DNA of 64,000 bases, taken from Bacteroidota bacterium (GTDB lineage Bacteria > Bacteroidota > Ignavibacteria > Kryptoniales > JAKASW01). The notes below the pieces were generated by a model, which saw only the letters and a program-made list of their open reading frames with translations, did no database searches and was not told where the DNA came from. The stretch spans positions 5,022 to 69,021 of the forward strand of contig JAJYRM010000008.1 in assembly GCA_021794075.1 (NCBI GenBank), given 5' to 3'. The position numbers were made by a program, and so were the translations under genes. Positions 9,319-56,768 of the stretch are shown piece after piece (position 1 is the stretch's first letter; every line of letters starts with the position of its first letter).

Positions 9319-10695
9319 TCACAAGTTCCTGGTACGGATTATTTCATTTCTCAACTCTTCGAAAGTAGTGTTGCTGTAGCTCCTTTTTAGGGGAACCCTG
9401 ACACCGTTTATTTCGGCTACGACGCTCTGATGAATGATCCCGAGCACCGTCAGTTTCGGGCATTTCTTGCGGCTCATCGCGAGTACCGATTCCTGCTTCT
9501 TCGCGGAAAGCTCCTTCACCAGATCGTTTTGGCGGCGGAGTTTTTCCTGCAGGAGCTTGAGCTGCTCGACTTTCTCGTAAGTAAAATTGTTACCGTCGAT
9601 TCTCTCCCTGACCAGGATATAGACGTCGTTCTTCAGTTGATCGATAACTTTTGACTGTAGCTGAATTTCTCGGTCAATGGCGATCGCGTTCTCCCTCTGG
9701 AGTTCGGCAATGCCGACTTTCACCCTCGTGGTTGAATAATGTTCTCCACCGATCGTTTGAGCTTCGATTGCTTCGCCGGCGGCCACAGTGCCTCCCATAA
9801 TTGTGGCATTAGTGGCAATAATTTTCTCGGAGGCGATTAGATGTGCGTTCACGCATTCTTTTCCTATAGTTATCGAACCTTCAGCCTCTATCATCTGGTT
9901 TAAAACGACATTGACCGCTACAATTCCGGCAGCTCTAATCAGGCCATCGCCGCGGCCGACGAAACTTCCTTCAACGGTAACGTTCCCTCCAGCTACAATC
10001 TTGGCGTCCTCCACAGATCCTTCGACATGAAGGTCATGACGGATCCTCAGGCTGCCGCTTCCTTTTATGTCGCCGGTAACGTGTAATGAGCCGGCACACT
10101 CCAGCTCGCCGTCAGAATAGTCGATATCACCGTGTACCATGTGTTGTGGAACTATCTCCACACTTGCGGGGCCCGCGTTAAGGTAGCCGTCTGCCGCGGC
10201 TTCGAGGATTATCTTAGTTTCAGTCTCGACGCGTTTTATCTCTGGGCCCGTGAAGATGTTGCAGGCCTTTCCTTCATCGGGTTGCACTTTTCTGCCGAAG
10301 ACATCTACCCCGACAATCCCGGAGGAAGGCTTGTATATTTCGCCTATTGTATCTTCAGTGTAGACGTTCGTGATCTCAAGTTTCTTTTCGCCTTCAGAGC
10401 GGGGACGAGCCTCCAATGGCTTATAGTAGCCATCGTTGCCGTCGGAATGCCTGGAGCCGCGCGCGACCAGAGTTCTCACTCCGACGTTTTTGATTGCGGC
10501 GAGCGCGGCGTTCAAATCGACCCCGTAGACAATGCCGTTGGCTTCCAGGAGCGCCTGTATATCAGACAATTCCAGCCCATTTTGCTCTGCGGTTGCATAG
10601 GTTTCGTAGCAGTCGCCAGATATGTCAAGCTTGATGCGCGTGCTTGCGACTTCCACTTTTGTCCGACCTCCGCGATCATCTTCCGGTTGGCTCAT
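9319..10695 (-). CDS. FapA/DUF342-family protein
   Basis: N-terminal FapA_N-like segment ([24 protein letters not shown]), a central beta-helix-like repeat ([36 protein letters not shown]...) and a C-terminal coiled coil. Its start overlaps the stop of the upstream MCP. Confidence 0.65.
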
Positions 10696-18417: not shown

Positions 18418-18432
18418 TGGCACAGTCGTTGA
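18418..18432 (+). promoter_or_regulatory. Sigma-54-like -24/-12 element candidate upstream of the flgB operon
   Basis: TGGCAC-AGTCG-TTGA compared with the consensus TGGCAC-N5-TTGC. The only mismatch is the conserved C at -12. It lies 30 nt upstream of the micro-ORF ATG. A near-identical motif occurs upstream of fliL. Confidence 0.3.
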
Positions 18433-18462: not shown

Positions 18463-18597
18463 ATGAGAAAATATTTGGTAATAGTTTCGCTGGTGGCTTT
18501 CTTTTCTACCTTGGCGGTGATTATCGCAGATGCTCAAAATGCCGAGGAGATAACTGGAGCAGTGGACGATGAGATGGACAATTATCTGGGAGTATGA
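18463..18597 (+). CDS. 44-aa micro-protein (signal/TM segment plus acidic tail), leader gene of the flgB operon
   Basis: Not in the ORF track because it is under 60 aa. Sequence: MRKYLVIVSLVAFFSTLAVIIADAQNAEEITGAVDDEMDNYLGV. AAGGAG lies 7 nt upstream of the ATG. The stop TGA is 2 nt before the flgB ATG. Confidence 0.4.
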   Translation: MRKYLVIVSLVAFFSTLAVIIADAQNAEEITGAVDDEMDNYLGV

Positions 18598-18599
18598 AC

Positions 18600-36633: not shown

Positions 36634-38715
36634 ATGGCGGCGACTGTAGACAGAATATCGGCCAGCAAAGCGTACAAATTATTCGGGAAGAATACCGACC
36701 TGCTACTCGCGGGTGTGGTGCTTCTTATTCTCTCTCTGATGATCGTGCCGCTTCCGCCGTTCATGCTTGATGTTCTCATTTCGGCAAACATTACGTTCTC
36801 GATCGTCCTCCTGATGGTCGCCATGTACATCACGAGCCCGCTCGAACTTTCCGCGTTCCCCGGTTTGCTCCTGATACTCACGCTGTTCCGTCTCTCTTTG
36901 AACGTTGCCTCTTCAAGATTGATCCTCAGTAAAGGATATGCCGGTGAAGTCATACACGCGTTCGGCTCGTTTGTCGTTCAGGGAAACTACGTAGTCGGCG
37001 TAATCATATTCATAATCTTGGCGACCATCCAGTTTGTCGTCATTATCAAAGGCTCCGGAAGAATCGCGGAAGTCACGGCACGGTTTACCCTGGACGCGAT
37101 GCCCGGTAAGCAGATGAGCATCGATGCCGATATGAACTCCGGTTTGATCACCGAAGATCAGGCCAGGCAGCGGCGCGTCAACCTGCAGAGAGAGGCAGAC
37201 TTCTTCGGCGCGATGGACGGCGCAAGCAAATTCGTCAAAGGCGACGCGGTAGCGGGTGTCATCATAATAGTCGTCAACATCGTCGGTGGATTCATCATAG
37301 GTATGGCGCAGCTTGGGATGAGTTTCACGGAGTCTCTCTCACACTACACTCTTCTCACGATCGGCGACGGCTTGGTCACGCAAATACCTGCACTGGTTAT
37401 TTCAACGGCGGCAGGCATGATAGTAACCAGGAGCGCGTCAGGCGGCCAGCTCGACCAGGAATTGAAAAAGCAGCTATTATCGAGGCCGAAAGCGCTCTAC
37501 ATCGCCGGCGGAACGCTCGCGTTTTTCGGGATCATCCCGGGACTTCCGACAGTGCCATTCCTCGCCCTCGCCACAATTGTGGCGGGCTTCGGTTACGTCA
37601 GGTCTAAAACCATGTCGAACCAGCCTGCGGAGGAGCAAGCCAAGGCGGTTACTGAAGAGGAGAAGAAGGACGAGAAAATTGAGTCCTACCTGCAGGTCGA
37701 TCCTATCGAACTTGAGATAGGGTACGGTTTGATTTCGATGGTAGATGAAGCTGCGGGCGGCGATCTCTTTCAGCGGATCACGAATTTGAGGAAGCAGATC
37801 GCGCTCGAGTTAGGCATGATCGTGCCTCCAATCAGAGTGCGCGACAACCTTCAACTCCCGCCGAGCCGCTACGTGATCAAGATAAGAGGCGTGCAGGTTG
37901 CCCAGGGTGAACTTTACATGGATCGATACCTCGCGATGAGTCCGAGTATGAAGGAAGGCGACATCCCGGGTATTTACGTCACGGATCCGACTTTCGGACT
38001 ACCCGCAGTGTGGGTCGAAAGAACGCAGCGCGACAATGCCGAAGTTCTGGGCTTCACTGTCGTGGAGGCGCCTGCAGTGCTGTCGACGCATCTTGGCGAG
38101 ACGCTGAAAAGGAATGCGGATAAGATCCTCAGCAGGCAGGAAGTGAAGATGCTCATAGACAATTTGAAGAAGGACTACGGCGCGCTCGTCGAAGAGATTA
38201 ATCCGGACCTTCTTCCGCTGGGAACGCTTCAGAAGGTGCTTCAGAATCTGCTCAAGGAACGCATCCCGATACGGGACCTCGTGACGATCATCGAGTCGCT
38301 TCTTGATTATTCCAAAGTAACAAAGAACACAGAGGTCTTGACCGAATACGTAAGGCACGCTCTCTCTGAAACAATAGCTGCCCTCTACGCCGATCCGTCC
38401 GGCGTAATTCACGCGATAACGCTTGATCCGTCAGTTGAACAGATACTGTCGAGTTCTCTGCAGACTCAAAAAGAGATCACGAACACGCTCGGGCTTTCAC
38501 CTGAAATCACAAAGAAAATAAACGACAGCGTTTCGAGAAATGTCGAACACGCTCAATCGTTCGGTTACGACCCAGTCGTCATTTGTTCGGCGACAGTAAG
38601 GCTTTATTTCTACAGGCTTATACATACGAACTTCCAGCAGGTGGCCGTCACTTCGTACACGGAGCTCCCGGCACGCACCGAGATTGATATCATCGGAAGG
38701 ATAGTAGCAGGATGA
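36634..38715 (+). CDS. flhA: Flagellar export gate protein FlhA
   Basis: Conserved FHIPEP region (ARFTLDAMPGKQMSIDADMNSGLI, GAMDGASKFVKGDA) and a C-terminal cytoplasmic ring domain. Confidence 0.96.
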   Translation: MAATVDRISASKAYKLFGKNTDLLLAGVVLLILSLMIVPLPPFMLDVLISANITFSIVLLMVAMYITSPLELSAFPGLLLILTLFRLSLNVASSRLILSKGYAGEVIHAFGSFVVQGNYVVGVIIFIILATIQFVVIIKGSGRIAEVTARFTLDAMPGKQMSIDADMNSGLITEDQARQRRVNLQREADFFGAMDGASKFVKGDAVAGVIIIVVNIVGGFIIGMAQLGMSFTESLSHYTLLTIGDGLVTQIPALVISTAAGMIVTRSASGGQLDQELKKQLLSRPKALYIAGGTLAFFGIIPGLPTVPFLALATIVAGFGYVRSKTMSNQPAEEQAKAVTEEEKKDEKIESYLQVDPIELEIGYGLISMVDEAAGGDLFQRITNLRKQIALELGMIVPPIRVRDNLQLPPSRYVIKIRGVQVAQGELYMDRYLAMSPSMKEGDIPGIYVTDPTFGLPAVWVERTQRDNAEVLGFTVVEAPAVLSTHLGETLKRNADKILSRQEVKMLIDNLKKDYGALVEEINPDLLPLGTLQKVLQNLLKERIPIRDLVTIIESLLDYSKVTKNTEVLTEYVRHALSETIAALYADPSGVIHAITLDPSVEQILSSSLQTQKEITNTLGLSPEITKKINDSVSRNVEHAQSFGYDPVVICSATVRLYFYRLIHTNFQQVAVTSYTELPARTEIDIIGRIVAG

Positions 38716-39968
38716 GAATAAAGAAATTCACCGGTTCTACGGCTAAAGAGGCCGTGGAGAAGATGCGGCAGGAATTCGGCGAAGAAGCCGTAGTCCTGAA
38801 CACGCGCCGCGTATCCAAGGGCGGCCTTCTCGGAATAGGCAATGAAGAATATGTCGAAGTGACTGCCGCTTACGACGAGTCCCCGATGAAGGTGCAACCG
38901 CGGCGCCAGGAAACCCGTTCACAGCAGGCGCCGGCCGCCGGAGAGGATGTCCTCGGCAGCCTTAGACAAATGGCTTCCAAGTTTGAAGAGAAACGAAAGG
39001 CTGATATCTCCACGAAGCGGCCGCCGGTATCGATGGCCCAGGCCGCCTCAAGCGCCGAGAGCGACGCCCTCAGGCAGGAACTCTCCGAGGTGAAGAGCGC
39101 GCTTGGAGAAATAGCTCAGCATATCAAGCACTCCAAGATGCCGGTCCTTTCCGAAGCGCTGAAAAACGTTTACACGTCGCTTGTCGACAACGAGGTCGAG
39201 GAGGATATTGCTCTCGAAATCGTGCAGGCCTGCAACAACAAGCTGAGCGGAAGCTCAATTGAAAACCAGTTTGCGGTTGACAACTTCGTCTATTCTGCCA
39301 TAGCCACCCGTTTCTTGGAAGCCCCTGTCAGAAGGCTTGGAAGGAGAGGCTACGTTGTCGCGCTCGTCGGACCGACCGGTGTCGGCAAGACAACAACCGT
39401 TGCTAAGCTCGCTTCCATAAGCAAGCTTGTCAAAGGTGAGAACGTCGCGCTGATTACGGCCGATACGTACAGGATCGGAGCCATCGATCAGCTTAAGGCT
39501 TTTGCGGATATAGCATCGATACCGTTATCCGTCGTGTACACTCCGGACGAAATGATAGCCGCTATCAGAAAGTATTCGAACTACGACACGATTTACATAG
39601 ACACTGTAGGTAGAAGTCAGCGGAAGCCCGACAAAATAATTGAGCTCGGCAGGTTCATCGACGCTGCCGATCCGAACGAAGTTCACCTGGTGCTGAGCGC
39701 AAACTTCTCGGCGAGCACTGTACTCGATATTTACAAGAGATTCAAGAGTCTTAAGCCTAACAGGCTGTTGATCACTAAAACAGATGAGGCTGTTTCTCTC
39801 GGGATGTTGCTGAGCATTGCCCGGGATTCTAGGGTGCCGTTTTCTTTTATCACGAATGGCCAAAGCGTTCCCGATGACATTGAGCCCGCGTCGGGAGATG
39901 GCCTTTCTAAAATGATTTATCCGGTCGGATCATATCGTGATGAAATCGGAGCCGAAGCCCATGCTTGA
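38712..39968 (+). CDS. flhF: Flagellar SRP-type GTPase FlhF
   Basis: MRIKKFTGSTAKEAVEKMRQEFGEEAVVL B-domain start. NG domain with GPTGVGKTTT, DTYRIGA, DTVGRS and TKTDE. Confidence 0.9.
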   Translation: MRIKKFTGSTAKEAVEKMRQEFGEEAVVLNTRRVSKGGLLGIGNEEYVEVTAAYDESPMKVQPRRQETRSQQAPAAGEDVLGSLRQMASKFEEKRKADISTKRPPVSMAQAASSAESDALRQELSEVKSALGEIAQHIKHSKMPVLSEALKNVYTSLVDNEVEEDIALEIVQACNNKLSGSSIENQFAVDNFVYSAIATRFLEAPVRRLGRRGYVVALVGPTGVGKTTTVAKLASISKLVKGENVALITADTYRIGAIDQLKAFADIASIPLSVVYTPDEMIAAIRKYSNYDTIYIDTVGRSQRKPDKIIELGRFIDAADPNEVHLVLSANFSASTVLDIYKRFKSLKPNRLLITKTDEAVSLGMLLSIARDSRVPFSFITNGQSVPDDIEPASGDGLSKMIYPVGSYRDEIGAEAHA

Positions 39969-40785
39969 TCAGGCAGTAAGGTTGAGGGAAGTGGTGAACG
40001 CTCAGACAGCCGTGGCGCAAATCGGCGATCAGCCGCATAAGATCAGCGTCGTAAGCGGAAAAGGCGGAGTGGGTAAGAGCAACATAGCCCTCAATCTCGG
40101 TATAGCACTCGCCCGGGATGGCGCACGTGTCCTACTGGTTGATGGTAATGTCAATCTTTCCAACCTCGATATCCTTTCTGGTGTTTCGCCGAACTACAGG
40201 CTCTTCGATGTGATTGAAGGGAAGGTAGGGCTCAGAGAGGCGACCGCGGAAATATCTCCGAACGTGTTTCTCCTTGCTGGCATGTCCGACGGAAGGTTGA
40301 AGAAGCTCGGGTCGGGAGACGCGGCAGCGTTCTTCAGAGAAGTAAAGCTCGCAGAGCCGGCATTCCATTACGCTGTGATCGATACAGCAGGCGGCATCGT
40401 GCAGGAGTCGATATCGCTCGCTCTCCTATCCGATGAGGTTCTTGTCGTCTCGACGCCGGAGCCGACGGCGGTCATGGACGCTTATGTGCTCGTGAAGGCG
40501 ATCAAAAGAATAAACGCGAACGCCGATCTGAGGTTGCTCATAAACAGGGCAAAGAGCGCCGAGGAGGCGGATGAAGTGAGAGCGAAGTTCGACCTGGTCA
40601 GCGAGCATTTCTTGAATCTCAAGATCGAATACGCCGGTTTCATCCCTTCGGATGAATCGGTCGAGAAAGCTGTAAGTGTGCAGTCGCCCTTAGTCAAAGA
40701 GTTTCCAGAATCCTTGTCTTCAAAGGCGATTGCTTCGATGGCGGAACGCATCCTGGCAAAAGGATCATTCAGGAAAAAAGTGTGA
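39961..40785 (+). CDS. flhG: Flagellar number regulator FlhG/FleN (MinD-type ATPase)
   Basis: Deviant Walker A SGKGGVGKSN and a MinD-like fold. An alternative start at 39937 is possible. Confidence 0.88.
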   Translation: MLDQAVRLREVVNAQTAVAQIGDQPHKISVVSGKGGVGKSNIALNLGIALARDGARVLLVDGNVNLSNLDILSGVSPNYRLFDVIEGKVGLREATAEISPNVFLLAGMSDGRLKKLGSGDAAAFFREVKLAEPAFHYAVIDTAGGIVQESISLALLSDEVLVVSTPEPTAVMDAYVLVKAIKRINANADLRLLINRAKSAEEADEVRAKFDLVSEHFLNLKIEYAGFIPSDESVEKAVSVQSPLVKEFPESLSSKAIASMAERILAKGSFRKKV

Positions 40786-41054
40786 TGGACAAGCTTGGAA
40801 TAAAAATACCGATGCTGGCCTTCTTCCTTGGCGTCGTTTACTTCGCCTCCGATGGATTCGGCGTCGTTGATGCGATAATAAGGGCGTTCATGCTTGCTTT
40901 CGGTATCGCCCTGATTATCCTCCTATTCACAATGCTACTCATGTTCTTCCTGACTCTTCAGAAGAACCGATCGGAAACCGAGAAAACACCTGCCGCGGAT
41001 CAGCGATCACAAACAGGTCAGCTGCAGAGCAAGAAAGTTGAGATGCAATCATGA
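40782..41054 (+). CDS. Hypothetical small membrane protein (2 TM) between flhG and fliA
   Basis: Two hydrophobic segments followed by a polar Gln/Lys tail. Its start overlaps the flhG stop and its stop overlaps the fliA start. No family recognised. Confidence 0.5.
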   Translation: MMDKLGIKIPMLAFFLGVVYFASDGFGVVDAIIRAFMLAFGIALIILLFTMLLMFFLTLQKNRSETEKTPAADQRSQTGQLQSKKVEMQS

Positions 41055-41779
41055 CGACTCAAGAACTCTGGGAAAAATACTCCCGGCGCAAGACGGCGGC
41101 AGTGAAGAAAGAACTCGTCCTTTCTTACATGAATCTGGTCAAATACGCGGCCCGAGCTATTAATCTCCCTTCGAAGTGCGTCTTCGACGCCGATGACCTG
41201 ATGAGTATAGGCATAATCGGTCTGGTGGAGGCGATAGAAAGGTTCGATCCGAAGCGCGGGGTGAAATTCGAGACTTTCGCGTCACAGAGAATTCGCGGCG
41301 TCATGCTTGACGAAATAAGGAAAGTAGATTGGCTCCCGAGGTCTGTCCGCGACAAATATAAGAAAGCCTCCAAATCGCTGAGCGAGCTCGATATGGACAG
41401 CATAAACGGCGAGAAGTACGCCCGTGCGATAAACATGAGTATCAGTGAGTTTGAGCAGATCAAGGGTTACCTGGCTAATGCCGAAACCGTCTCTCTCACC
41501 AGGACGATCGGTGAAGATATGACCCTTGAAGACGTGATTGGCAGCGACAGCGAAGTTATCGAGCAGTTCGAGGATGAGGAACTGAAGGGGCAGCTCGTGC
41601 AGATCCTGAAGCAGCTTCCTGAAAGAGAACGCATGGTGGTCACCCTTTACTATTACGAGGAACTCACCTTCAAAGAGATTGGAAAGGTTCTTGGGATAAG
41701 CGAGTCCCGCGTGTCCCAAATACATTCTGAGGTGATATCGAAAATGAAGGGGCAGCTAAGAAAGGTTGTTGAACTATGA
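41051..41779 (+). CDS. fliA: Flagellar sigma factor FliA (sigma-28)
   Basis: Region 2 (GIIGLVEAIERFDPKRGVKFETFASQRIRGVMLDEIRK), region 3, and region 4.2 (LPERERMVVTLYYYEELTFKEIGKVLGISESRVSQIHS). Confidence 0.93.
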   Translation: MTTQELWEKYSRRKTAAVKKELVLSYMNLVKYAARAINLPSKCVFDADDLMSIGIIGLVEAIERFDPKRGVKFETFASQRIRGVMLDEIRKVDWLPRSVRDKYKKASKSLSELDMDSINGEKYARAINMSISEFEQIKGYLANAETVSLTRTIGEDMTLEDVIGSDSEVIEQFEDEELKGQLVQILKQLPERERMVVTLYYYEELTFKEIGKVLGISESRVSQIHSEVISKMKGQLRKVVEL

Positions 41780-42942
41780 TAGGGGTTGGACAATTGACTG
41801 ACAGGTTATCATCGATAAAGGATTTGCCCACTTTTCCGACCACCGCGTTGGAAGTCATGCGGCTCGCGAGCGATTCGGACAGCAGCGCTGCCGAGCTGGC
41901 GAGGATAATTTCAAGAGACCCTTCGCTAGCGACCAAGATACTTCGGGTGGCTAATTCGCCTTATTATGGCTTTGCCAGAAAGATTTCTACTATTGAGTGG
42001 GCGATCGTCGCTCTCGGGTTTGAGACTCTGAGAGAGACCATCCTCTCACTGACGATGATTGACCTGTTCAAAGGCGGCGCGACGAAAAGTTTTGACCCGC
42101 GAAAGTTCTGGAAGCATGCCGTCGATACAGCCTCGGCCGCCCGGACGCTCGCGCGTGAGGTGAAATACAGGATCCCCGGTGAGGCGTACGCCTCAGGTTT
42201 ACTCCACGATGTCGGGACGCTGGTACTCTACAAGTATTTCCGGGATGATTTTGATGAGATACTCAGGCTTGAAAACGAAGAAGGGGTGCAGCCTTCCCAG
42301 GCCGAAGTGGTGGTCACGGGGACGACCCACGGCGAGATCGGTGCATGGCTCGCATCCAAATGGGGATTCCCGGCTTACCTCGTCGAGGCAATTCAGTTCC
42401 ATCACTCACCGGCGTTTGCTCAAGTGAATCCGGAGCTTACTTCGATAGTTCACGCGGCAAGCCTCATCGCGTCATCTGTCGGTTACTCCTGCGCTGACCA
42501 ACCTATAAGGTTCGATACCTTGGCGATTAAATATCTCGGGATCGAGAGGCTCTCCTCTCCCATGAGAATTCTCGCCAAGAAATATGTCAACGATGATAAT
42601 ACGAGCCTCATAAAAATTCGCGTGCCCATGACCGATTACGCGCCCGGCAGCGAACCGGAACTGCCCACAATCGATTCAGAAGAAAAGTCTGACGACGAAG
42701 TGGACGACGGCACTCTCAAGAGATTTTTCAAAGATGCTATAAAACTTCTTCCTTCGACCGAAAGACTGGTCTTGACTCTTAAGCTTTACGAAGGGCTTGA
42801 ACTCAGACAGGTGGCGACTGTGCTTGGTTACGAGGAAGCAATTGTCGCTGAGTATTACAAGAACGCAATTTCCGCGCTCCAGCAGATGGCTGAACGCGCG
42901 ATACTAACGAATAGGTTGGACCAATGGAAAATGAGATTCTAA
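41776..42942 (+). CDS. HDOD-domain protein with C-terminal FliA-like sigma region 4
   Basis: HDOD hallmarks: LPTFPTTALEVMRL, ANSPYYGF, GLLHDVG, HGEIGAWLASKWGFP, FHHSP. After an acidic linker comes LLPSTERLVLTLKLYEGLELRQVATVLGYEEAIVAEYYKNAISALQQM, which aligns to FliA region 4. An ATGA overlap links it to the fliA stop. Confidence 0.75.
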   Translation: MIGVGQLTDRLSSIKDLPTFPTTALEVMRLASDSDSSAAELARIISRDPSLATKILRVANSPYYGFARKISTIEWAIVALGFETLRETILSLTMIDLFKGGATKSFDPRKFWKHAVDTASAARTLAREVKYRIPGEAYASGLLHDVGTLVLYKYFRDDFDEILRLENEEGVQPSQAEVVVTGTTHGEIGAWLASKWGFPAYLVEAIQFHHSPAFAQVNPELTSIVHAASLIASSVGYSCADQPIRFDTLAIKYLGIERLSSPMRILAKKYVNDDNTSLIKIRVPMTDYAPGSEPELPTIDSEEKSDDEVDDGTLKRFFKDAIKLLPSTERLVLTLKLYEGLELRQVATVLGYEEAIVAEYYKNAISALQQMAERAILTNRLDQWKMRF

Positions 42943-43784
42943 AAGAAAAAGTACAGAATATCATACAGCTTCCCGCACTTCCCACTATTGCGGTCGAGGT
43001 TGCTTCGCTAATCGACAATCCGAACACGAGTGTCTCCAAGCTGACTAAAGTCATCTCCGCCGACCAGGTCCTGACTGCCAAGGTGCTGAAAATAGCGAAC
43101 TCGCCTTTCTACGGCTTTCAAAGGAAAATATCGACGCTCGATTTCGCCATCATGGTACTCGGCTTCGATTCGCTGAAGGAGATTTTGATAAGCGTTTCGT
43201 TAATAAGCGCTTTTAAAAAGAAACAGGACAAATATTTCAATTCGAAAGAGTTCTGGGAGCATTCGCTGGCTACGGGAATTGCCGCTCGTACCCTCGCGAA
43301 ACAGCTCGGCTATCGTATCAGCGGTGAATCGTTTGTGGCAGGGCTCATCCACGACATCGGGATACTCGTGACCCATCAATATTTCCACGATGATTATATA
43401 CAGATCGTCGATGCCGTGACCGACGGAAAGGTGTCCTTCCAGGATATGGAAGAGACGGTCCTCTTCGCCACGCACGGTGACATCGGGGCATGGCTGGCTG
43501 AGCGGTGGAATCTTCCCGATCAGCTCATTGAGGCGATCAGATTCCATCACAAGCCGAGCCTCGCCGAAAGAAACCCACAGCTGACGGCCCTGATCCATTT
43601 TGTCGATTATCTTTGCCATAAACTAGGTATTGGCGCTCTCTCCTATGAGAAAGTGCAGCAGTACGATCCTGAATCGTTGAAGATCCTTAACATCTCTGAA
43701 GCTGAGATGACCGAGGCTTTCTATGAGTCCTTCGGTTCGAAACTGCGCGAAGATCTTGAGCGGACATTTGTGAATATTATCTGA
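42924..43784 (+). CDS. Stand-alone HDOD-domain protein
   Basis: LPALPTIAVEVASLIDNP, ANSPFYGF, GLIHDIG, HGDIGAWLAERWNLP, FHHKP. It overlaps the previous gene by 19 nt. Confidence 0.85.
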   Translation: MENEILKEKVQNIIQLPALPTIAVEVASLIDNPNTSVSKLTKVISADQVLTAKVLKIANSPFYGFQRKISTLDFAIMVLGFDSLKEILISVSLISAFKKKQDKYFNSKEFWEHSLATGIAARTLAKQLGYRISGESFVAGLIHDIGILVTHQYFHDDYIQIVDAVTDGKVSFQDMEETVLFATHGDIGAWLAERWNLPDQLIEAIRFHHKPSLAERNPQLTALIHFVDYLCHKLGIGALSYEKVQQYDPESLKILNISEAEMTEAFYESFGSKLREDLERTFVNII

Positions 43785-43809
43785 CTTGTTTACCCGGAGA
43801 TTATAATAA

Positions 43810-45219
43810 ATGAAAAAAGAAGAGTTAGCAGAGAACGACACGAAAACGGAGAGCGGAAATCCGCAGACGCCTGCCGTTGCTGAGACAATAGAGCGATTCA
43901 TGGAGACTCGCGAATCGTACATCCATGCGCTGGAAAGCACGATTCAGATGCTCAAGATGAAGCTCGATTTGCACGAGAAGACCGAGACGGACATCAAACA
44001 GTCCCTCGACGAAATATTCGCGATGCAACGGCTTGCAAACACAATCAGCACCGCCACCGACCCAATCTCTGTCTTCGATTCTCTCCTGGAACTTACCCGT
44101 CAGGTGGTTCCCGTCGAAGAGAGCATGATATTCGAGGTCGGAGCGTCAAGGTCTCAGACGAAGCCCTTCCTTTCCACGTGCTCCGACTATATGCTCAAAG
44201 CTTCGCAGCATCTGCTTGAAGAGGGTATTCTCGACTGGGTTATCGAGCAGAAGAAGACGACCGTGGTGCCTGATCTTAACGCGTCGGTGGCGGAAGCCGG
44301 AAAGCGGAACTTTGTTGTTGTCCCGCTGACACTCCGCAACGAGGCCATCGGGGTCTACATCATTCGCACAAGCGGCTTGCGCAGTATATTCACCGACCAT
44401 GAATTGATGTTGCTCGGAATTCTTTCGAACCAGGCCGGCGTCGCGATCGAGAACCTTCATAACATTCACAAACTTATCGACGCCGCCGAAGAGCTGAAGA
44501 AATCGCAGTCCCAGATGCTTCAGGCCGCGAAGCTCGCCTCCCTCGGGGAGCTCGCGGGCGGTATCGCGCACGAAATCAACAACCCTCTTCAGATTCTCCT
44601 TGGCCATATCGCCCTCCTTCAACAGGGGAAAGATATCGAGCACAGGATCGAGATCATCAGGAGCCAGGTCCAGAGAATCTCTCAGATTACCCGCCAGCTT
44701 GTCTCGTTCTCCAGGAGCGTCCCCGAAGAACTTAGCCATGAGCTGGTCAATGTCAACTGGGCTATAAACGAAATCATAGCTCTCGTCGATTATCAGTTTA
44801 AGAACCGCGGCATAGATTTCGACCTGCGTTTCTCGGAAGACATCCCACCGCTGGACTCGAACAAGAACTATATGCAGCAGGCTTTCCTTAATCTTCTGAT
44901 AAACGCGAAAGACGCGATGCCTAACGGAGGAAAGATGATCATTTCAACAGAGTTCGTTAATGGGAAAATAAATATACGCTTCACCGATTCGGGGTCGGGC
45001 ATAAAAAAAGAAAACCTTGTCAAAATTTTCGAACCGTTCTTCACGACGAAGGAGCCAGGAAAGGGAACCGGCCTCGGCCTTCCGATCACGAGAGGGATTG
45101 TGAGGAAATTTGGAGGCGAGATCAAAGTCGACAGTATCGAAGGCCAAGGTACAACTTTTTCGATAGTGCTTCCGGTACTTAGAACCGGCAGCACTATCAG
45201 TGGAGGTAATGTTAAATGA
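43810..45219 (+). CDS. Cytoplasmic GAF-domain sensor histidine kinase
   Basis: No TM segment. GAF-like region (LLELTRQVVPVEESMIFEV ... VVVPLTLRNEAIGVYII), H-box GIAHEINNPLQ, N-box LLINAKDAM, G-boxes DSGSGI and GKGTGLGL. Confidence 0.85.
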   Translation: MKKEELAENDTKTESGNPQTPAVAETIERFMETRESYIHALESTIQMLKMKLDLHEKTETDIKQSLDEIFAMQRLANTISTATDPISVFDSLLELTRQVVPVEESMIFEVGASRSQTKPFLSTCSDYMLKASQHLLEEGILDWVIEQKKTTVVPDLNASVAEAGKRNFVVVPLTLRNEAIGVYIIRTSGLRSIFTDHELMLLGILSNQAGVAIENLHNIHKLIDAAEELKKSQSQMLQAAKLASLGELAGGIAHEINNPLQILLGHIALLQQGKDIEHRIEIIRSQVQRISQITRQLVSFSRSVPEELSHELVNVNWAINEIIALVDYQFKNRGIDFDLRFSEDIPPLDSNKNYMQQAFLNLLINAKDAMPNGGKMIISTEFVNGKINIRFTDSGSGIKKENLVKIFEPFFTTKEPGKGTGLGLPITRGIVRKFGGEIKVDSIEGQGTTFSIVLPVLRTGSTISGGNVK

Positions 45220-45896
45220 CAGGAATGTTCTTAATGTTTCTATCCGTCGCGGACACCGCGGCGGTAAATATCAGAGCGCTGGTGACAAGGGATATGGCGC
45301 GCGCGGCAGTCAAGGCCGCCGAGGCGGCGTATCGGAAACCTCCGAGCGAGTTTTTCGGGATCTCCGAGTTCGTGCTGCTTCTCGAGTTGGCGATGATCCT
45401 TGCCATGGCCGCCCTTCTTGTCGCCCTTGTCGTTCGGTCCAGGAGACTAGCGCGTGAACAAAAAGAGAAAGTGGCCCGGGCGCAACGGATGAGTGTCAAA
45501 CGGCCTGCCGCCATTACGAAGGCGGAGATCGAGAGGATACTCGGGCAGATCGCCGTCGATAAGGCGAAAAACGCGGAAGCGTTGACCGGAGCATATTACA
45601 TCGACAACAACGGTAGGCTCGATTCCGCGGCCGCCGTCCACGAGATGGCGAGGGAACACGGAATGGAATCTGAGCGGCTGAAATTTGCCATCTCATACGC
45701 CTCTCAGTCGGCGAGACAGACGGGCGCTAAGTTCAAGGAAGCTTTCTCGCTGGTCAGCGAAGAATCTGATCTGAACGTTTTGGCTCGTCAGCTCAACATG
45801 GGAAAGGGTGAGCTTGAACTTATCCTCGCGTTAAAACGGAGTAAGATTGCCAATTCCAGAAATGTTGTGGATAAAGGCAAAGGAGGAAAATCATGA
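45216..45896 (+). CDS. Hypothetical membrane-anchored protein with C-terminal HTH-like tail
   Basis: One TM segment (FVLLLELAMILAMAALLVALVV), a charged helical region, and C-terminal DLNVLARQLNMGKGELELILALKRS. That tail is reminiscent of flagellar-locus DUF2802/DUF6115 proteins, from memory only. ATGA overlaps on both sides. Confidence 0.45.
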   Translation: MTGMFLMFLSVADTAAVNIRALVTRDMARAAVKAAEAAYRKPPSEFFGISEFVLLLELAMILAMAALLVALVVRSRRLAREQKEKVARAQRMSVKRPAAITKAEIERILGQIAVDKAKNAEALTGAYYIDNNGRLDSAAAVHEMAREHGMESERLKFAISYASQSARQTGAKFKEAFSLVSEESDLNVLARQLNMGKGELELILALKRSKIANSRNVVDKGKGGKS

Positions 45897-46648
45897 TCAA
45901 AGGAATCTACACAAGCGCGCTTGGTCTTATACCGCTGCAGAAGAAACTCGAAGTAATCGCAAACAACCTCGCGAATGTTGATACGACTGCGTTCAAGAGG
46001 GATGATTCGTTTGCAAACCAGCTTATATCCGCCAATACGGTGGTAAATAACGGAAGCGTGGATCCGACGCAGAATGATGTCAGCGAGCAAACGTTCACGG
46101 ACTTCTCACAAGGTCCGCTTCAGCAAACCAGCAATCCGCTCGATGTCGCGATAGACGGTCATGGCTTTTTCGTGGTTCAGAACCAGGACGGCAGCACCAG
46201 CCTCACGCGCGACGGATCGTTCACGCTTTCAAGCGACGGTACCCTCGTAACCCGCAACGGCGCGACCGTTATGGGGGCCGACGGGCCGATACGCATCGGC
46301 GACATACAGCAGATACAGTCGAGTAGTCTAGTCATCGACAGGTACGGCGTCGTCAAGGCAGGCAAAGAAATCTACGGTCAGCTGAGAGTGGTGATGCCCT
46401 CTTCGTATAGCGCGATCAGCAAGGCGGGCGGAAATCTCTATTCGCTTCAACAGAGTGCTCAACTCCAGGATGTCAACCCGTCTTCTGTGACGATCAGGCA
46501 GGGTTATCTCGAAGGGTCTAACGTTAATCCCATCGAGGAGATGGTGGCCATGATACAGATCCAGCAGGATTTCGAAGCAGGCCAGAAAGCCATACAGAGC
46601 CAGAACACCACGCTCTCGGAAGCGAACCAAGTCGGTCAGGTGGCTTGA
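45893..46648 (+). CDS. flgF: Flagellar basal-body rod protein FlgF
   Basis: MIKGIYTSALGL...IANNLANVDTTAFKRD N-terminus and a FlgF/G C-terminal domain (GYLEGSNVNPIEEMVAMIQIQQDFEAGQKAI). Confidence 0.85.
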   Translation: MIKGIYTSALGLIPLQKKLEVIANNLANVDTTAFKRDDSFANQLISANTVVNNGSVDPTQNDVSEQTFTDFSQGPLQQTSNPLDVAIDGHGFFVVQNQDGSTSLTRDGSFTLSSDGTLVTRNGATVMGADGPIRIGDIQQIQSSSLVIDRYGVVKAGKEIYGQLRVVMPSSYSAISKAGGNLYSLQQSAQLQDVNPSSVTIRQGYLEGSNVNPIEEMVAMIQIQQDFEAGQKAIQSQNTTLSEANQVGQVA

Positions 46649-49941: not shown

Positions 49942-50760
49942 ATGGATAAGATTCAGCAAAACATATCGGCAGGACAGGTTCAGTTAACCGCGCAGCAAAA
50001 AGCGAAACTCAAAGTCGCTGTGAAAGACTTTGAAGCCGTGTTCATGCAGTATATGCTGAAAGCCATGCAGGAAACCGAGAATATCGACGGAAAGAGCGAC
50101 AACAAGGGATACGGAAACGGTATCATGACCGGCCTGTTTAATATGAAGCTCTCGGAATACATGACAAAGAATTCAAGCCTCGGCATCGGTAGCATGCTTT
50201 ACAAGCAGCTTACCGGTGAGGAGATGGACACGACTCCTGCCGGGGTTTCTCAGTCGGAGCTCAACGATCCGGTCCAGGGGCTTCCCGATAAGCCGCAAAA
50301 TGTTCTTCAGAAGATAAAAGCCTACAGCTCGGGTTCGCTGCTGGAGAACGTCGGTAAATATTCCGATATAATTAATGAAGCGGCAGGTACCTACAATTTG
50401 CAGCCTAACCTGATAAAAGCTGTCATCGCCGCGGAATCTTCGGGGAACGCCGACTCGCTTTCGGTCAAGGATGCGAAAGGGCTCATGCAGCTTACCGATT
50501 CGACTGCAAAGGAAATGGGCGTCTCAAACCCGTTCAACCCGAAGGAGAACATAATGGGTGGCGCGAAGTATCTGAAAAGCCTTGTGGAGAAATTTCCCGG
50601 CGACCTTGAAAAGGCGCTGGCTTCTTACAATGCGGGACCCGGAGCGGTTGAGCAATACGGTGGCGTGCCTCCATACCCGGAGACACAAACATACGTCAAG
50701 AGAGTAATGAACTATTTAAACATGTTCGACGCGAGTGAGGTTGGCAATGGAGGACAATAG
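49942..50760 (+). CDS. flgJ: FlgJ-like rod-binding domain fused to a lytic transglycosylase (SLT) domain
   Basis: N-terminal rod-binding motif (AVKDFEAVFMQYMLKAMQE). C-terminal SLT signatures (AVIAAESSGN, GLMQLTDSTAKEMG, ASYNAGPGAV). Confidence 0.8.
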   Translation: MDKIQQNISAGQVQLTAQQKAKLKVAVKDFEAVFMQYMLKAMQETENIDGKSDNKGYGNGIMTGLFNMKLSEYMTKNSSLGIGSMLYKQLTGEEMDTTPAGVSQSELNDPVQGLPDKPQNVLQKIKAYSSGSLLENVGKYSDIINEAAGTYNLQPNLIKAVIAAESSGNADSLSVKDAKGLMQLTDSTAKEMGVSNPFNPKENIMGGAKYLKSLVEKFPGDLEKALASYNAGPGAVEQYGGVPPYPETQTYVKRVMNYLNMFDASEVGNGGQ

Positions 50761-55397: not shown

Positions 55398-55679
55398 ATG
55401 TTAGTATTGACAAGGAAGTTGGGCGAAGTAATAAAAATCGGCGACAAGGTTAAAGTCGTCGTAGTCGCCGTAGATGGTGGTAGCGTCAAGCTTGGCATCG
55501 AAGCTCCGGACGAAATCCCAGTTCACAGAGAAGAAGTCTACGTGAAGATAGCATCGGAGAACAAGGAAGCTTCGTCAAGGCTCGACAGGGATAGCGCTAA
55601 AGCGCTGAAGGACATGCTTTCAAAAGGTTCTCCGCGAGCAAGCAAGGACTCGGAACGAACGGGAAAGAAGAATGCCTGA
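55398..55679 (+). CDS. csrA: Carbon storage regulator CsrA (long C-terminal tail)
   Basis: MLVLTRKLGEVIKIGDKVKVVVVAVDGGSVKLGIEAPDEIPVHREEVY is canonical CsrA, followed by a charged tail of about 40 aa. Confidence 0.93.
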   Translation: MLVLTRKLGEVIKIGDKVKVVVVAVDGGSVKLGIEAPDEIPVHREEVYVKIASENKEASSRLDRDSAKALKDMLSKGSPRASKDSERTGKKNA

Positions 55680-56388
55680 CGCTGCTCAGAAGCGCGTTCT
55701 GGTAATAGACGACACGAAAATCATCCAGAGGTTCGCCGAAGATTTCTTCAAGCGGATGAATATGTCCGTGTCGCTGGCTTCCGACGGTTATGAAGGCTTG
55801 CGGATGGCGCTTTCCTCCCGACCTGATGTTATATTCCTTGACCTGATGATGCCGAGGCTCGATGGCTTTAAAACTCTTCAGGTCATAAAATCTAATGAGG
55901 TCACCAAGGATGTCCCGGTCGTAGTCATGACGGCATACTCTGACAGGATAAATGTCGTGTCGGCGGGTAAGTTGGGCGCCGCTGCTGTCATTACGAAACC
56001 TCTTTCCGAAGAAGTCCTCTTGCAGAAATTACAACAGGTCTTCGGCAGGAACTTTATTAGGTCGATGATCCCGCGGGATCCGAAGGAAAAAGAAAACCCG
56101 TTCGGTGTGAAGGAAGAAGAGTACAGCGACGTCGTGCGAAGTATGGTCGAGGAATTCGTGGCGTACTTTGGCGAGCAGGTTGACTTGCTGGAAAAGGCTG
56201 TTCACGAAAAGGACATCAATACCATCAGAACGATTACCCATAACATCCGGGGCACGGGCGGATCGTTTGGTTATGATGAGGCGACTACGCTTGCGACCCG
56301 GCTGAACGAGGTCGTCCACCATTCCCCCGTTGATTGGGAGAACGCGGAAGAATTGCTTTTACAGTTAAAGAACAGGTTGAAAAAATGA
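55672..56388 (+). CDS. Response-regulator receiver fused to an HPt domain
   Basis: REC residues (VIDDT, FLDLMMPRLDG, VMTAYS, ITKPL) plus a C-terminal HPt (IRTITHNIRGTGGSFGYDEATTLATRL). The ATG lies inside the last codons of csrA. Confidence 0.8.
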   Translation: MPDAAQKRVLVIDDTKIIQRFAEDFFKRMNMSVSLASDGYEGLRMALSSRPDVIFLDLMMPRLDGFKTLQVIKSNEVTKDVPVVVMTAYSDRINVVSAGKLGAAAVITKPLSEEVLLQKLQQVFGRNFIRSMIPRDPKEKENPFGVKEEEYSDVVRSMVEEFVAYFGEQVDLLEKAVHEKDINTIRTITHNIRGTGGSFGYDEATTLATRLNEVVHHSPVDWENAEELLLQLKNRLKK

Positions 56389-56768
56389 AAGCGCTGGTTG
56401 CGGATGATGTACCGATGATCAGGAAACTCGTGGAGTTTCATCTGAAACAAGTCGGTTTTGATATTTCAAATGCTGCCGATGGGGCGGAGGCGCTCATGCT
56501 CGCGGAGACCAACAAGTATGATTTGATACTTTTGGACATAATGATGCCTGAGATGGATGGACTCGAGGTCCTGCGGCGAATTCGATCGGGAAACGTAAAC
56601 AAGGCCACACCGATAATAATCATGACCGCTTACGGCGATTCCGCGAACGTGAAAAAGGCGGTCGAATTCGGCGCGAACGACTTCATCGTTAAACCGGTGG
56701 AACAAGTTTCGTTTAGGAAGAAAGTTGTCAATGCGGTCAGTTCGCGGTCGAAGGAAGGCGGCAAATGA
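56385..56768 (+). CDS. Single-domain response regulator (CheY-like)
   Basis: ALVADDVPMIRK, LLDIMMPEMDG, IMTAYGD, FIVKPV. An ATGA overlap links it to the previous gene. Confidence 0.85.
   Translation: MKALVADDVPMIRKLVEFHLKQVGFDISNAADGAEALMLAETNKYDLILLDIMMPEMDGLEVLRRIRSGNVNKATPIIIMTAYGDSANVKKAVEFGANDFIVKPVEQVSFRKKVVNAVSSRSKEGGK

Follow-up and report, generated by a model that had tools for sequence, protein, structure and literature searches.

Introduction

Control of the flagellar sigma factor sigma-28 (FliA) is a textbook example of how gene expression can be tied to assembly, and it has so far rested on the export of FlgM. Post-translational control of the FliA/WhiG family through contacts that include region 4 is known from two systems, FlgM with sigma-28 and RsiG with cyclic di-GMP (c-di-GMP) and sigma-WhiG, and the PhyR-NepR-EcfG system of the Alphaproteobacteria works by partner switching, where PhyR combines a receiver domain with a mimic of regions 2 and 4 of an extracytoplasmic function (ECF) sigma factor. 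Proteins with an HDOD domain, such as SadB of Pseudomonas, GsmR, and MmoQ, regulate motility or transcription by protein–protein contacts, and SadB sets a precedent by acting in this manner on the transcription regulator AmrZ (PMC12075610). Here, a 64,000-nucleotide stretch of DNA from an uncultured bacterium of the Kryptoniota (listed as Bacteroidota bacterium; GenBank assembly GCA_021794075.1, contig JAJYRM010000008.1, forward-strand positions 5,022 to 69,021), hereafter called the window, is compared with these systems. Between the flagellar genes fliA and flgF, the window carries a cassette of four genes (41776–45896 in window positions, which are used throughout), consisting of a fusion of an HDOD domain to a sigma region 4 (gene 1), a stand-alone HDOD protein (gene 2), a GAF histidine kinase (gene 3), and a single-transmembrane protein (gene 4).

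Gene 1 resembles PhyR by analogy and not by family membership (its tail matches the PhyR family model weakly, E = 3e-4), in that a sensor would be joined to a sigma-like domain that does not recognize promoters, the gene adjoins that of the imitated sigma factor, and the proposed action is titration of the partner of that sigma factor. It differs from PhyR in copying only region 4 of a group-3 sigma factor (FliA) and in having HDOD as its sensor. The proposed control would involve region-4 contacts, as it does for FlgM and RsiG; unlike these two, the cassette copies the sigma side of the interface and not the anti-sigma side, and none of its four proteins resembles FlgM or RsiG in Pfam or NCBIfam searches. 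SadB and the receiver-HDOD proteins, unlike gene 1, have no sigma domain. The first-pass annotation of the window had proposed a sensory checkpoint acting on sigma-28, and a functional link of this sort is made plausible by the tail of gene 1, a predicted FliA-type region 4 from the neighboring fliA. Our reading, to which we give somewhat less than an even chance, is that the cassette serves to control sigma-28 and that gene 1 adds to it a region-4 decoy particular to one lineage. A full-text literature search found no account of an HDOD-sigma fusion, a sigma-28 mimic, or this locus of the Kryptoniota; the arrangement is real, conserved, and undescribed, and it belongs to kinds already known, on the one hand partner switching or sigma mimicry and on the other the control of flagellar genes by an accessory two-component system.

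The Sigma-Like Tail of Gene 1

Gene 1 (41776–42942, + strand) encodes 388 amino acids, predicted to form an HDOD domain (residues 17–212; 41824–42411, +; Pfam HDOD, E = 3.6e-63), an acidic linker, and a sigma-28-type region 4 tail (residues 312–388; 42709–42942, +), which is the proposed decoy. The region 4 scores under the Pfam threshold (18.3 bits vs. a cut-off of 25.7), and its assignment comes from several other comparisons. Residues 301–388 are 36% identical to FliA of the window over 69 residues (BLASTP, E = 3e-10), and a profile of the tail picks out region 4 in each FliA of the fetched loci. The best NCBIfam family is FliA_WhiG, matched at profile positions 164–222 only (the last ∼60), and the best sequence matches in the PDB are sigma-WhiG (6pfj, 6pfv, and 7lq4) and FliA (6pmi, 9wsf, and 1rp3), with WhiG in RsiG complexes at the top, followed by FliA chains including those of FliA-FlgM complexes. 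In the AlphaFold model, residues 311–387 form four helices with a predicted local distance difference test score (pLDDT) of ∼77–85, and a Foldseek comparison of this predicted model with solved region-4 domains gives template-modeling scores of 0.80–0.85 and root-mean-square deviations of 1.0–1.8 Å, consistent with a full region 4.1–4.2 fold. By sequence and predicted structure, the tail is thus a sigma region 4 of the FliA/WhiG type. No Sigma70_r2 or Sigma70_r3 match was found in gene 1 with Pfam or NCBIfam, and its N-terminal 270 residues are taken by the HDOD domain; the lack of regions 2 and 3 rules gene 1 out as a sigma factor. The decoy domain probably derives from region 4 (residues 186–233) of FliA of the window (41051–41779, +; 242 amino acids; Pfam Sigma70_r2 and Sigma70_r4; NCBIfam FliA_WhiG at 225 bits, over the cut-off). 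A search with the tail alone returned fragments and one deletion derivative only, with no other fusion partners for this type of decoy.

Across the 42 full-length members of the gene 1 family, which are 59–99% identical, the tail is the most constrained segment, with a mean identity of 85.7% compared with 73.4% for HDOD and 33% for the acidic linker. An 18-residue C-terminal extension, which has no counterpart in FliA, is conserved as well. In sigma-28 of P. aeruginosa, S224 and Q228 make base-specific contacts to the -35 element, where Ala substitutions lower transcription and flagellation, and the interface with FlgM includes L187 and L204 (PMC12784957). These residues were mapped to gene 1 by alignment to chain 9wsf_A and counted among the 42 members. 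S224 corresponds to A355 of gene 1 (Ala in 30 members, Ser in 5, and others in 7) and Q228 to E359 (Glu in 38, Gln in 1, and others in 3), and the two interface positions correspond to F318 (Phe in 40/42) and L335 (Leu in 42/42). The motif SESR[VI]SQ is kept in all 11 compared FliA proteins from three phyla, and FliA of the window has SESRVSQ. The tail has, as judged from this alignment, lost the Ser and Gln with which sigma-28 reads the -35 element, and the pattern of substitution and constraint is more in keeping with a decoy that binds protein than with a domain that binds DNA or a remnant in decay.

Position 356 of gene 1, which lies between the two replaced residues, is Arg or Lys in 37/42 members and Ile in the protein of the window. 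Together with the full region 4.1–4.2 fold and the conserved 18-residue C-terminal helix, which could give the dimerization needed for operator binding, the basic residue would suit a one-component transcription factor, in which the tail is an ordinary helix-turn-helix (HTH), like the LuxR/GerE relatives of region 4, and HDOD is the sensor, so that gene 1 binds an operator of its own and acts directly, as a repressor or an activator, on flagellar promoters. We regard this alternative as quite improbable, as both base-reading positions of sigma-28 are replaced, one of them by an acidic Glu in 38/42 members (PMC12784957), position 356 itself varies, and the closest sequence relatives of the tail are FliA/WhiG sigma factors and not LuxR-type regulators. 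In addition, no repeated operator-like sequence was seen, though none was looked for.

Proposed Origin of Gene 1 by Duplication

The order of domains from fliA onward is sigma region 4 (fliA), HDOD1 (gene 1), a second region 4 (gene 1), and HDOD2 (gene 2), which is the order expected from a single tandem duplication of the fliA 3' end together with HDOD, followed by loss of the stop codon of the first HDOD. Both junctions from region 4 to HDOD are overlaps. In a neighbor-joining tree of HDOD domains, HDOD2 groups with the single HDOD of those Kryptoniota that have a three-gene version of the cassette, and HDOD1 is a paralog that branches inside the Kryptoniota, after the Calditrichota and Fibrobacterota. 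Against the tail profile, FliA of the same lineage reaches 33–40 bits and FliA of the Calditrichota and three-gene Kryptoniota 25–30 bits; the single FliA of the Fibrobacterota scores 36.6 bits. These comparisons fit an origin of gene 1 by tandem duplication of the fliA 3' end plus HDOD in one lineage of the Kryptoniota, and gene 2 is, on the same tree, the ortholog of the single HDOD gene that follows fliA in other lineages.

The deletion derivative returned by the search with the tail comes from a collapsed flagellar locus on a 3.15-Mb contig of the Kryptoniota (L091:1206-5536; identifiers beginning with L denote public contig loci of relatives, and those beginning with P proteins of relatives). 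The order there is fliL, a FliM/FlhF chimera, flhG, a small protein, fliA, a 121-amino-acid protein, HDOD2, and a MotB C-terminal fragment, and the locus has lost the kinase, gene 4, and the genes for rod, ring, and hook-associated proteins. In the 121-amino-acid protein, the first 38 residues of HDOD1 are joined directly to an intact region-4 tail (80% identical).

HDOD Domains of Genes 1 and 2

HDOD domains are common, and we know of no established mechanism for them. Gene 2 (42924–43784, +) encodes 286 amino acids (Pfam HDOD, E = 3e-65), and both HDOD domains of the cassette span the whole Pfam profile PF08668 (positions 1–196 of 196) with 213 bits for gene 1 and 220 bits for gene 2, compared with a cut-off of 22.9. 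The N-terminal part of the predicted gene 1 model matches the HDOD structures 3hc1, SadB (9qzk, second-best), and 3m1t in Foldseek, and gene 2 matches 3HC1 with E = 1.9e-37. The structure 3HC1 binds two irons via five His and one Asp (PMC12075610). The corresponding residues of gene 1 (H114, H144, D145, H185, H209, and H210) are kept in at least 41/42 members, and the H, HD, H, and HH positions of gene 2 are identical to those of 3HC1. The two domains had been called degenerate HD-type domains in the first-pass annotation, a description that does not hold for the metal site, which is predicted to be intact in both of them with the five His and one Asp of 3HC1. SadB differs from the HDOD proteins of the cassette in having a YbaK-like N-terminal domain and in lacking most of the metal-binding histidines that genes 1 and 2 keep, with three of the metal-site histidines missing (PMC12075610).

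SadB of P. aeruginosa does not bind c-di-GMP and is an adaptor for AmrZ proteolysis (PMC12075610), and SadB of P. fluorescens is a reported c-di-GMP binder (PMC6543031). For the HDOD domains of the cassette, metal, redox, or gas sensing appears as likely as nucleotide binding. The locus places HDOD in a testable context, with a kinase as a defined neighbor, sigma-28 as a target candidate, and an intact predicted metal site.

Conservation of the Cassette

The nearest named relatives of the cassette are metagenome-assembled genomes of Candidatus Kryptoniota. Gene maps and a phmmer screen of all fetched loci found the four genes between fliA and flgF also in seven other genomes of the Kryptoniota, at identities as low as 59% (L001/L002, L007, L008, L009, L010, and L011), and the first three of them in L012, where the contig ends inside the kinase gene. 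The expected co-conservation of all four genes at the fliA–flgF position has thus been borne out across loci of the Kryptoniota. A three-gene version in other Kryptoniota (L003/L014) has the order fliA, one HDOD, kinase, a 179-amino-acid protein, and flgF, and the 179-amino-acid protein has the two-repeat tail of gene 4. In another locus of the Kryptoniota (L013), HDOD and kinase are present, and the gap before flgF is the size of an open reading frame (ORF), in which no gene-4 relative was detected.

Other phyla were searched by scanning the kinase alignment against one genome per species. The order flhA-flhF-flhG-fliA followed by HDOD and the GAF kinase was found in one locus of the Calditrichota (L016) and one of the Fibrobacterota (L034), and at least fliA-HDOD-kinase was found in three further loci of the Calditrichota (L018, L020, and L051). 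The gene 3 orthologs are 50% identical in the three-gene Kryptoniota and 30–36% identical in the Calditrichota and Fibrobacterota. The cassette had been taken for an insertion between fliA and flgF, a view that is at odds with a fliA-HDOD-GAF kinase core common to three phyla. The arrangement is more than chance and recurs in independent genomes, and, as far as these gene orders and alignments tell, the association of the HDOD-kinase pair with fliA is ancestral in this region of the tree. Distant stand-alone HDOD proteins (L005 and L006) were considered as well; they are not flagellar, and the fliA linkage does not reach them.

HDOD genes also stand beside kinase and motility genes elsewhere. 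On Bdellovibrionota-type contigs (L087:5001-8768 and the locus of P0080), a stand-alone HDOD gene and the gene of a PAS histidine kinase overlap, and the next gene encodes a sigma-54 activator of the NtrC type, so that the HDOD-kinase pairing recurs outside flagellar loci. In another lineage (L089:3982-6760), cheB and cheR flank an HDOD gene right behind fliOPQR-flhB, which is a further link of HDOD to motility. The cassette could on this ground be a general two-component unit for behavior or assembly and not for sigma-28, acting on motor function, on flagellar number or placement via FlhF/FlhG, or in c-di-GMP-type responses, with the tail as an interaction or dimerization module only. Besides these two gene neighborhoods, the core module that works without the tail in three lineages and the resemblance of gene 4 to FipA, which acts on FlhF placement and not on transcription (PMC11620751), agree with such a unit. 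It is nonetheless unlikely in our view, given that the HDOD-kinase pair lies directly after fliA in three phyla and that the tail is FliA-derived and more constrained than the sensor domain. The HDOD-kinase pair next to fliA and the constrained, FliA-derived tail point to sigma-28 as the object of control.

Between fliA and HDOD, two loci of the Calditrichota and the locus of the Fibrobacterota carry a highly charged ORF of ∼105 amino acids that overlaps the HDOD start (L016:8642-8971, L051:1049-1384, and L034:8704-9015). Its C-terminus is conserved (...HLDVKI or ...LIVDIDA), and it is not present in L018 and L020. These ORFs were compared with the tail of gene 1 as possible relatives, and neither a relation nor a family match was found.

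The Kinase of Gene 3 and Its Candidate Partners

Gene 3 (43810–45219, +) encodes a kinase of 469 amino acids composed of a coiled coil, GAF (E = 6e-9), HisKA (E = 3e-10, 40.6 bits), and HATPase_c (E = 3e-23, 82.8 bits), with the domains assigned by Pfam. No hydrophobic or transmembrane segment was found in it, and the description as a soluble GAF histidine kinase stands. The H-box is HEINNPL, and an alignment of three orthologs shows no variation at H254 or in the N, G1, and G2 motifs; the protein looks soluble and catalytically intact. The best NCBIfam matches are AtoS and ZraS, and gene 3 shares with kinases of the NtrB/AtoS/ZraS type a HisKA with the HEINNPL H-box and an intact ATP-binding domain. 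Unlike these kinases, it is soluble and GAF-sensing, lacks a neighboring regulator of the NtrC type, and always comes after an HDOD gene.

The kinase had further been described as having no cognate regulator. No regulator is indeed adjacent, the neighbors being the HDOD gene and gene 4, but a REC-Hpt protein (55672–56388, +; 238 amino acids; Pfam Response_reg and Hpt) and a single-domain REC (56334–56768, +; 144 amino acids; Pfam Response_reg) lie in the same operon ∼10 kb downstream of the kinase and close the same gene array. These two are candidate phosphorelay partners of the gene 3 kinase. As a pair after csrA, they look like a phosphorelay without a kinase of its own, and a REC-Hpt also follows csrA in a relative with 59% identity (L090:20463-20657). 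In the Calditrichota and Fibrobacterota, a REC-histidine kinase hybrid is encoded directly after the kinase (L018 and L020) or one or two genes further (L034 and L016).

The Membrane Protein of Gene 4

Gene 4 (45216–45896, +) encodes a single-pass membrane protein of 226 amino acids, with one hydrophobic, transmembrane segment at about residues 50–79 and a basic stretch after it. The cytoplasmic part has two repeats of a '...G.GE[LV]EL.L' motif, which ends in 'MGKGELELILALK' (a DUF2802/DUF6115-like tail). Of the earlier label, a single-transmembrane protein with an HTH-like tail, the one transmembrane segment has been confirmed, and 'HTH-like' stays a statement about a sequence motif, with no structural match. 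The possibility that the tail of gene 4 is a second region 4 was rejected after a profile-profile comparison with the gene 1 family showed no relation; it was favored only by weak Pfam r4_2 matches to two DUF6115 members.

The gene 4 family was found only in the Kryptoniota by word-seeded and exhaustive searches, and it is a narrow family, as a deep profile search of 1.8 billion representatives gave 9 matches. Three of the four remote matches of the profile are DUF6115 members by Pfam (P0180–P0182, with P0181 and P0182 at E = 4e-4). The gene 4 ortholog in L001 matches DUF6115 (E = 1.7e-4, 22.4 bits) and DUF2802 (E = 4.7e-4), in both cases under the Pfam cut-offs, and in the Calditrichota (L016) a 500-amino-acid TPR/membrane protein follows the kinase, of which the C-terminal tail passes the DUF6115 gathering score with 28.1 bits. 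These matches suggest that gene 4 is distantly related to the group of FipA (DUF2802) and DUF6115.

In gamma-proteobacteria, the gene of the single-pass membrane protein FipA comes right behind the flhA-flhF-flhG-fliA-che operon, and FipA binds FlhF via conserved Gly and Leu residues (PMC11620751). Known flagellar loci had been thought not to carry a set like that of the cassette at this position; with respect to gene 4, this needs correction, as an analogue near fliA exists in fipA of gamma-proteobacteria (PMC11620751). Gene 4 has the FipA-type layout, with an N-terminal transmembrane segment, a cytoplasmic C-terminal part, the fliA neighborhood, and flhF/flhG 5 kb upstream, and the block of flhF, flhG, and a 90-amino-acid membrane protein (38712–41054, +) may supply its partners. 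It keeps the Glu-x2-Leu pattern of FipA (E199 and L202) and has Glu, not Gly, at the position 16 residues upstream, so that the Gly critical in FipA is missing. In Bacillus subtilis, swrB follows sigD. The B. subtilis protein SwrB is monotopic, has a cytoplasmic C-terminal domain, and activates flagellar type III export (PMC4526659; bioRxiv 10.1101/2021.04.30.442225). Gene 4 is like FipA, DUF6115, and SwrB in being a small single-pass membrane protein with a cytoplasmic coiled region, and like FipA and the DUF6115 members in its C-terminal 'G.GE.EL.L'-type motif. It is unlike FipA and DUF6115 in scoring under both Pfam cut-offs, in its two motif repeats, and in a ∼45-residue N-terminal segment before the transmembrane segment.

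FlgM and the Proposed Control of Sigma-28

The usual flgM slot is empty in both lineages of the Kryptoniota examined, where flgJ overlaps flgN directly (50735–50760, +, in the window; L001:19014-19017; L003:17732-17745). A search of the six-frame segments of the 64-kb window by a motif pattern and by phmmer with approximate FlgM queries found no FlgM either. FlgM had been regarded as missing from this system, which holds for the flgJ–flgN slot and elsewhere in the 64-kb window, and the finding is limited to the window. The cassette had also been suggested to substitute for FlgM. Relatives without the sigma4 fusion are also without flgM in the slot, and the fusion is therefore not a simple one-for-one replacement of FlgM.

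This fact also bears on the idea that gene 1 inhibits or competes with sigma-28 directly, where the orphan region 4 would sit on the RNA polymerase beta-flap or another docking site of sigma-28 and would itself be the anti-sigma factor that stands in for FlgM. The empty slot in the window, L001, and L003 agrees with it, and so does the region-4.1 core LP..ER.V.TL, which packs against the flap in sigma factors and is kept in the tail. The translational coupling of gene 1 to fliA would also suit control by stoichiometry. Bound to the flap, however, a free region 4 would compete with every sigma factor and not just sigma-28, and the lineages that have no gene 1 lack flgM in the slot all the same; we consider direct inhibition to be a decidedly remote alternative.

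In the sigma-28 control module that we favor, which would be no recent acquisition, the ancestral core would consist of a metal-binding HDOD protein and a soluble GAF kinase, encoded directly after fliA. The signal would come from the HDOD proteins and the kinase, which probably acts via the REC-Hpt and REC proteins at the operon end, and gene 4 probably ties the system to the membrane-embedded assembly machinery, either FlhF or the export gate. Gene 1 would add an HDOD sensor that a disordered, acidic linker connects to a duplicate of region 4 of sigma-28, in which the fold and the hydrophobic surface residues appear to be kept and the -35-reading Ser and Gln are gone. It could then act as a decoy for the usual binder of sigma-28 region 4, most likely a FlgM-like anti-sigma factor, and the state of HDOD would set the amount of free sigma-28 by the partner-switch logic of PhyR-NepR-EcfG. 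In its most specific form, the proposal is that gene 1 is the first described mimic of a group-3 (flagellar) sigma factor, a region-4 decoy born of the tandem duplication and gated by a di-iron HDOD, through which a redox, oxygen, metal, or nucleotide signal sets free sigma-28 by competition for an anti-sigma partner, and that it sits atop an undescribed fliA-linked HDOD/GAF-kinase module of the Kryptoniota, Calditrichota, and Fibrobacterota; taken as a whole, this form is possible and, on balance, doubtful. If the reading is true, the sensor module wired to fliA in three phyla is a second, signal-dependent route to the sigma-28 control point, the region-4 decoy extends sigma mimicry from PhyR and ECF sigma factors to the flagellar sigma factor, and one tandem duplication can create such a regulator.

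Several points weigh against the proposed module. Unlike PhyR with NepR, gene 1 has no NepR-like or FlgM-like partner that could be found within the window, and Pfam FlgM (PF04316) has no match in the cassette proteins or in the small unassigned ORFs of the 64-kb window; if there is no anti-sigma factor, a decoy would have nothing to titrate. The decoy of gene 1 is not present in the three-gene Kryptoniota, the Calditrichota, or the Fibrobacterota, which makes it an add-on that is not essential to the core module. The conservation of F318 and L335 may reflect the region-4 fold alone, and the AlphaFold model of gene 1 has a mean pLDDT of 64, a modest confidence for the whole protein. For gene 4, the matches of the window protein to DUF2802 (PF10975; E = 0.014, 16 bits, cut-off 33.5) and DUF6115 (PF19610; E = 0.043, 14.6 bits, cut-off 27) lie under the thresholds, and its predicted model (pLDDT 66) finds nothing better than E = 1 in the PDB by Foldseek. 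Finally, the cassette is probably co-transcribed with fliA, as judged from gene spacing only.

Locus Layout and Transcription Context

The four genes are co-directional between fliA and flgF, and their ORFs and junctions, read from the sequence, agree exactly with the overlaps and the gap first reported. The fliA/gene 1, gene 3/gene 4, and gene 4/flgF junctions are ATGA overlaps (41776–41779, 45216–45219, and 45893–45896, respectively), gene 1 and gene 2 overlap by 19 nt (42924–42942), and a 25-nt gap with a GGAG motif before the start codon separates gene 2 from gene 3 (43785–43809). Upstream of fliA lie flhA (36634–38715, +; from the ORF listing and a greedy gene map), flhF (38712–39968, +), flhG (39937–40785, +; both from the ORF listing or gene map and Pfam), and the 90-amino-acid membrane protein, which is conserved and directly 5' of fliA (40782–41054, +). 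Downstream, the rod protein gene flgF (45893–46648, +; Pfam Flg_bb_rod, LlgE_F_G_D1, and Flg_bbr_C) is followed in order by flgG, flgA, flgH, flgI, flgJ, flgN, flgK, flgL, motA, motB, fliW, csrA, REC-Hpt, and REC. The cassette is within a co-directional flagellar array of ∼40 kb (18594–58285) with almost no intergenic spacing, which faces a divergent chemotaxis operon.

Promoter-like and terminator-like sites between 40500 and 47000 showed no excess over the shuffled expectation. The sigma-28 promoter pattern TAAA-N14-16-CCGATA has one match, which was discarded as it lies inside flgA on the wrong strand and is at chance level, and the count of sigma-54 pattern matches across the window is likewise at chance. 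One sequence, TGGCACAGTCGTTGA at 18418–18432 (+), has a single mismatch to the sigma-54 -24/-12 consensus and sits in the 516-nt gap directly 5' of the flagellar array, and it is to be taken as a lead only. Were the site genuine, the operon could be driven by an activator of the NtrC type and thereby by an NtrB-like kinase, for instance gene 3. A short ORF (18464–18598, +) with the start MRKYLVIVSLVAFFSTLAVIIADAQN, which is signal-peptide-like, follows this candidate sigma-54 site, ahead of the array's first gene. The first gene itself, at 18594, is read as flgB by position and has no Pfam match at E 1e-4.

The heptamer GCCGATA occurs 22 times in the window compared with 7.7 expected, and none of 100 shuffles reached 22. 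The placed sites (e.g., 24391, 24658, 24947, 25387, and 54093) are within coding regions and have no TAAA at the sigma-28 -35 spacing, and the excess is probably an effect of codon usage.

In the Kryptoniota and Calditrichota, the gene between flhG and fliA always codes for a hydrophobic protein of 73–90 amino acids without a family match and overlaps its two neighbors (40782–41054 in the window; L001:9034-9279; L003:8979-9200; L016:7436-7702), and a 110-amino-acid ORF occupies the same slot in the Fibrobacterota (L034). Adjoining the chemotaxis operon, a 180-amino-acid protein (1960–2502, +) has a C-terminal zinc finger of the DksA/TraR type (Pfam, E = 1e-4; NCBIfam DksA_like, E = 7.5e-9, under the cut-off) and could bind RNA polymerase. 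The chemotaxis operon also contains a gene of the FapA family (9319–10695, −), and in the Calditrichota a FapA gene (L016:15108-16532) lies directly 3' of the REC-kinase hybrid, downstream of the HDOD-kinase pair.

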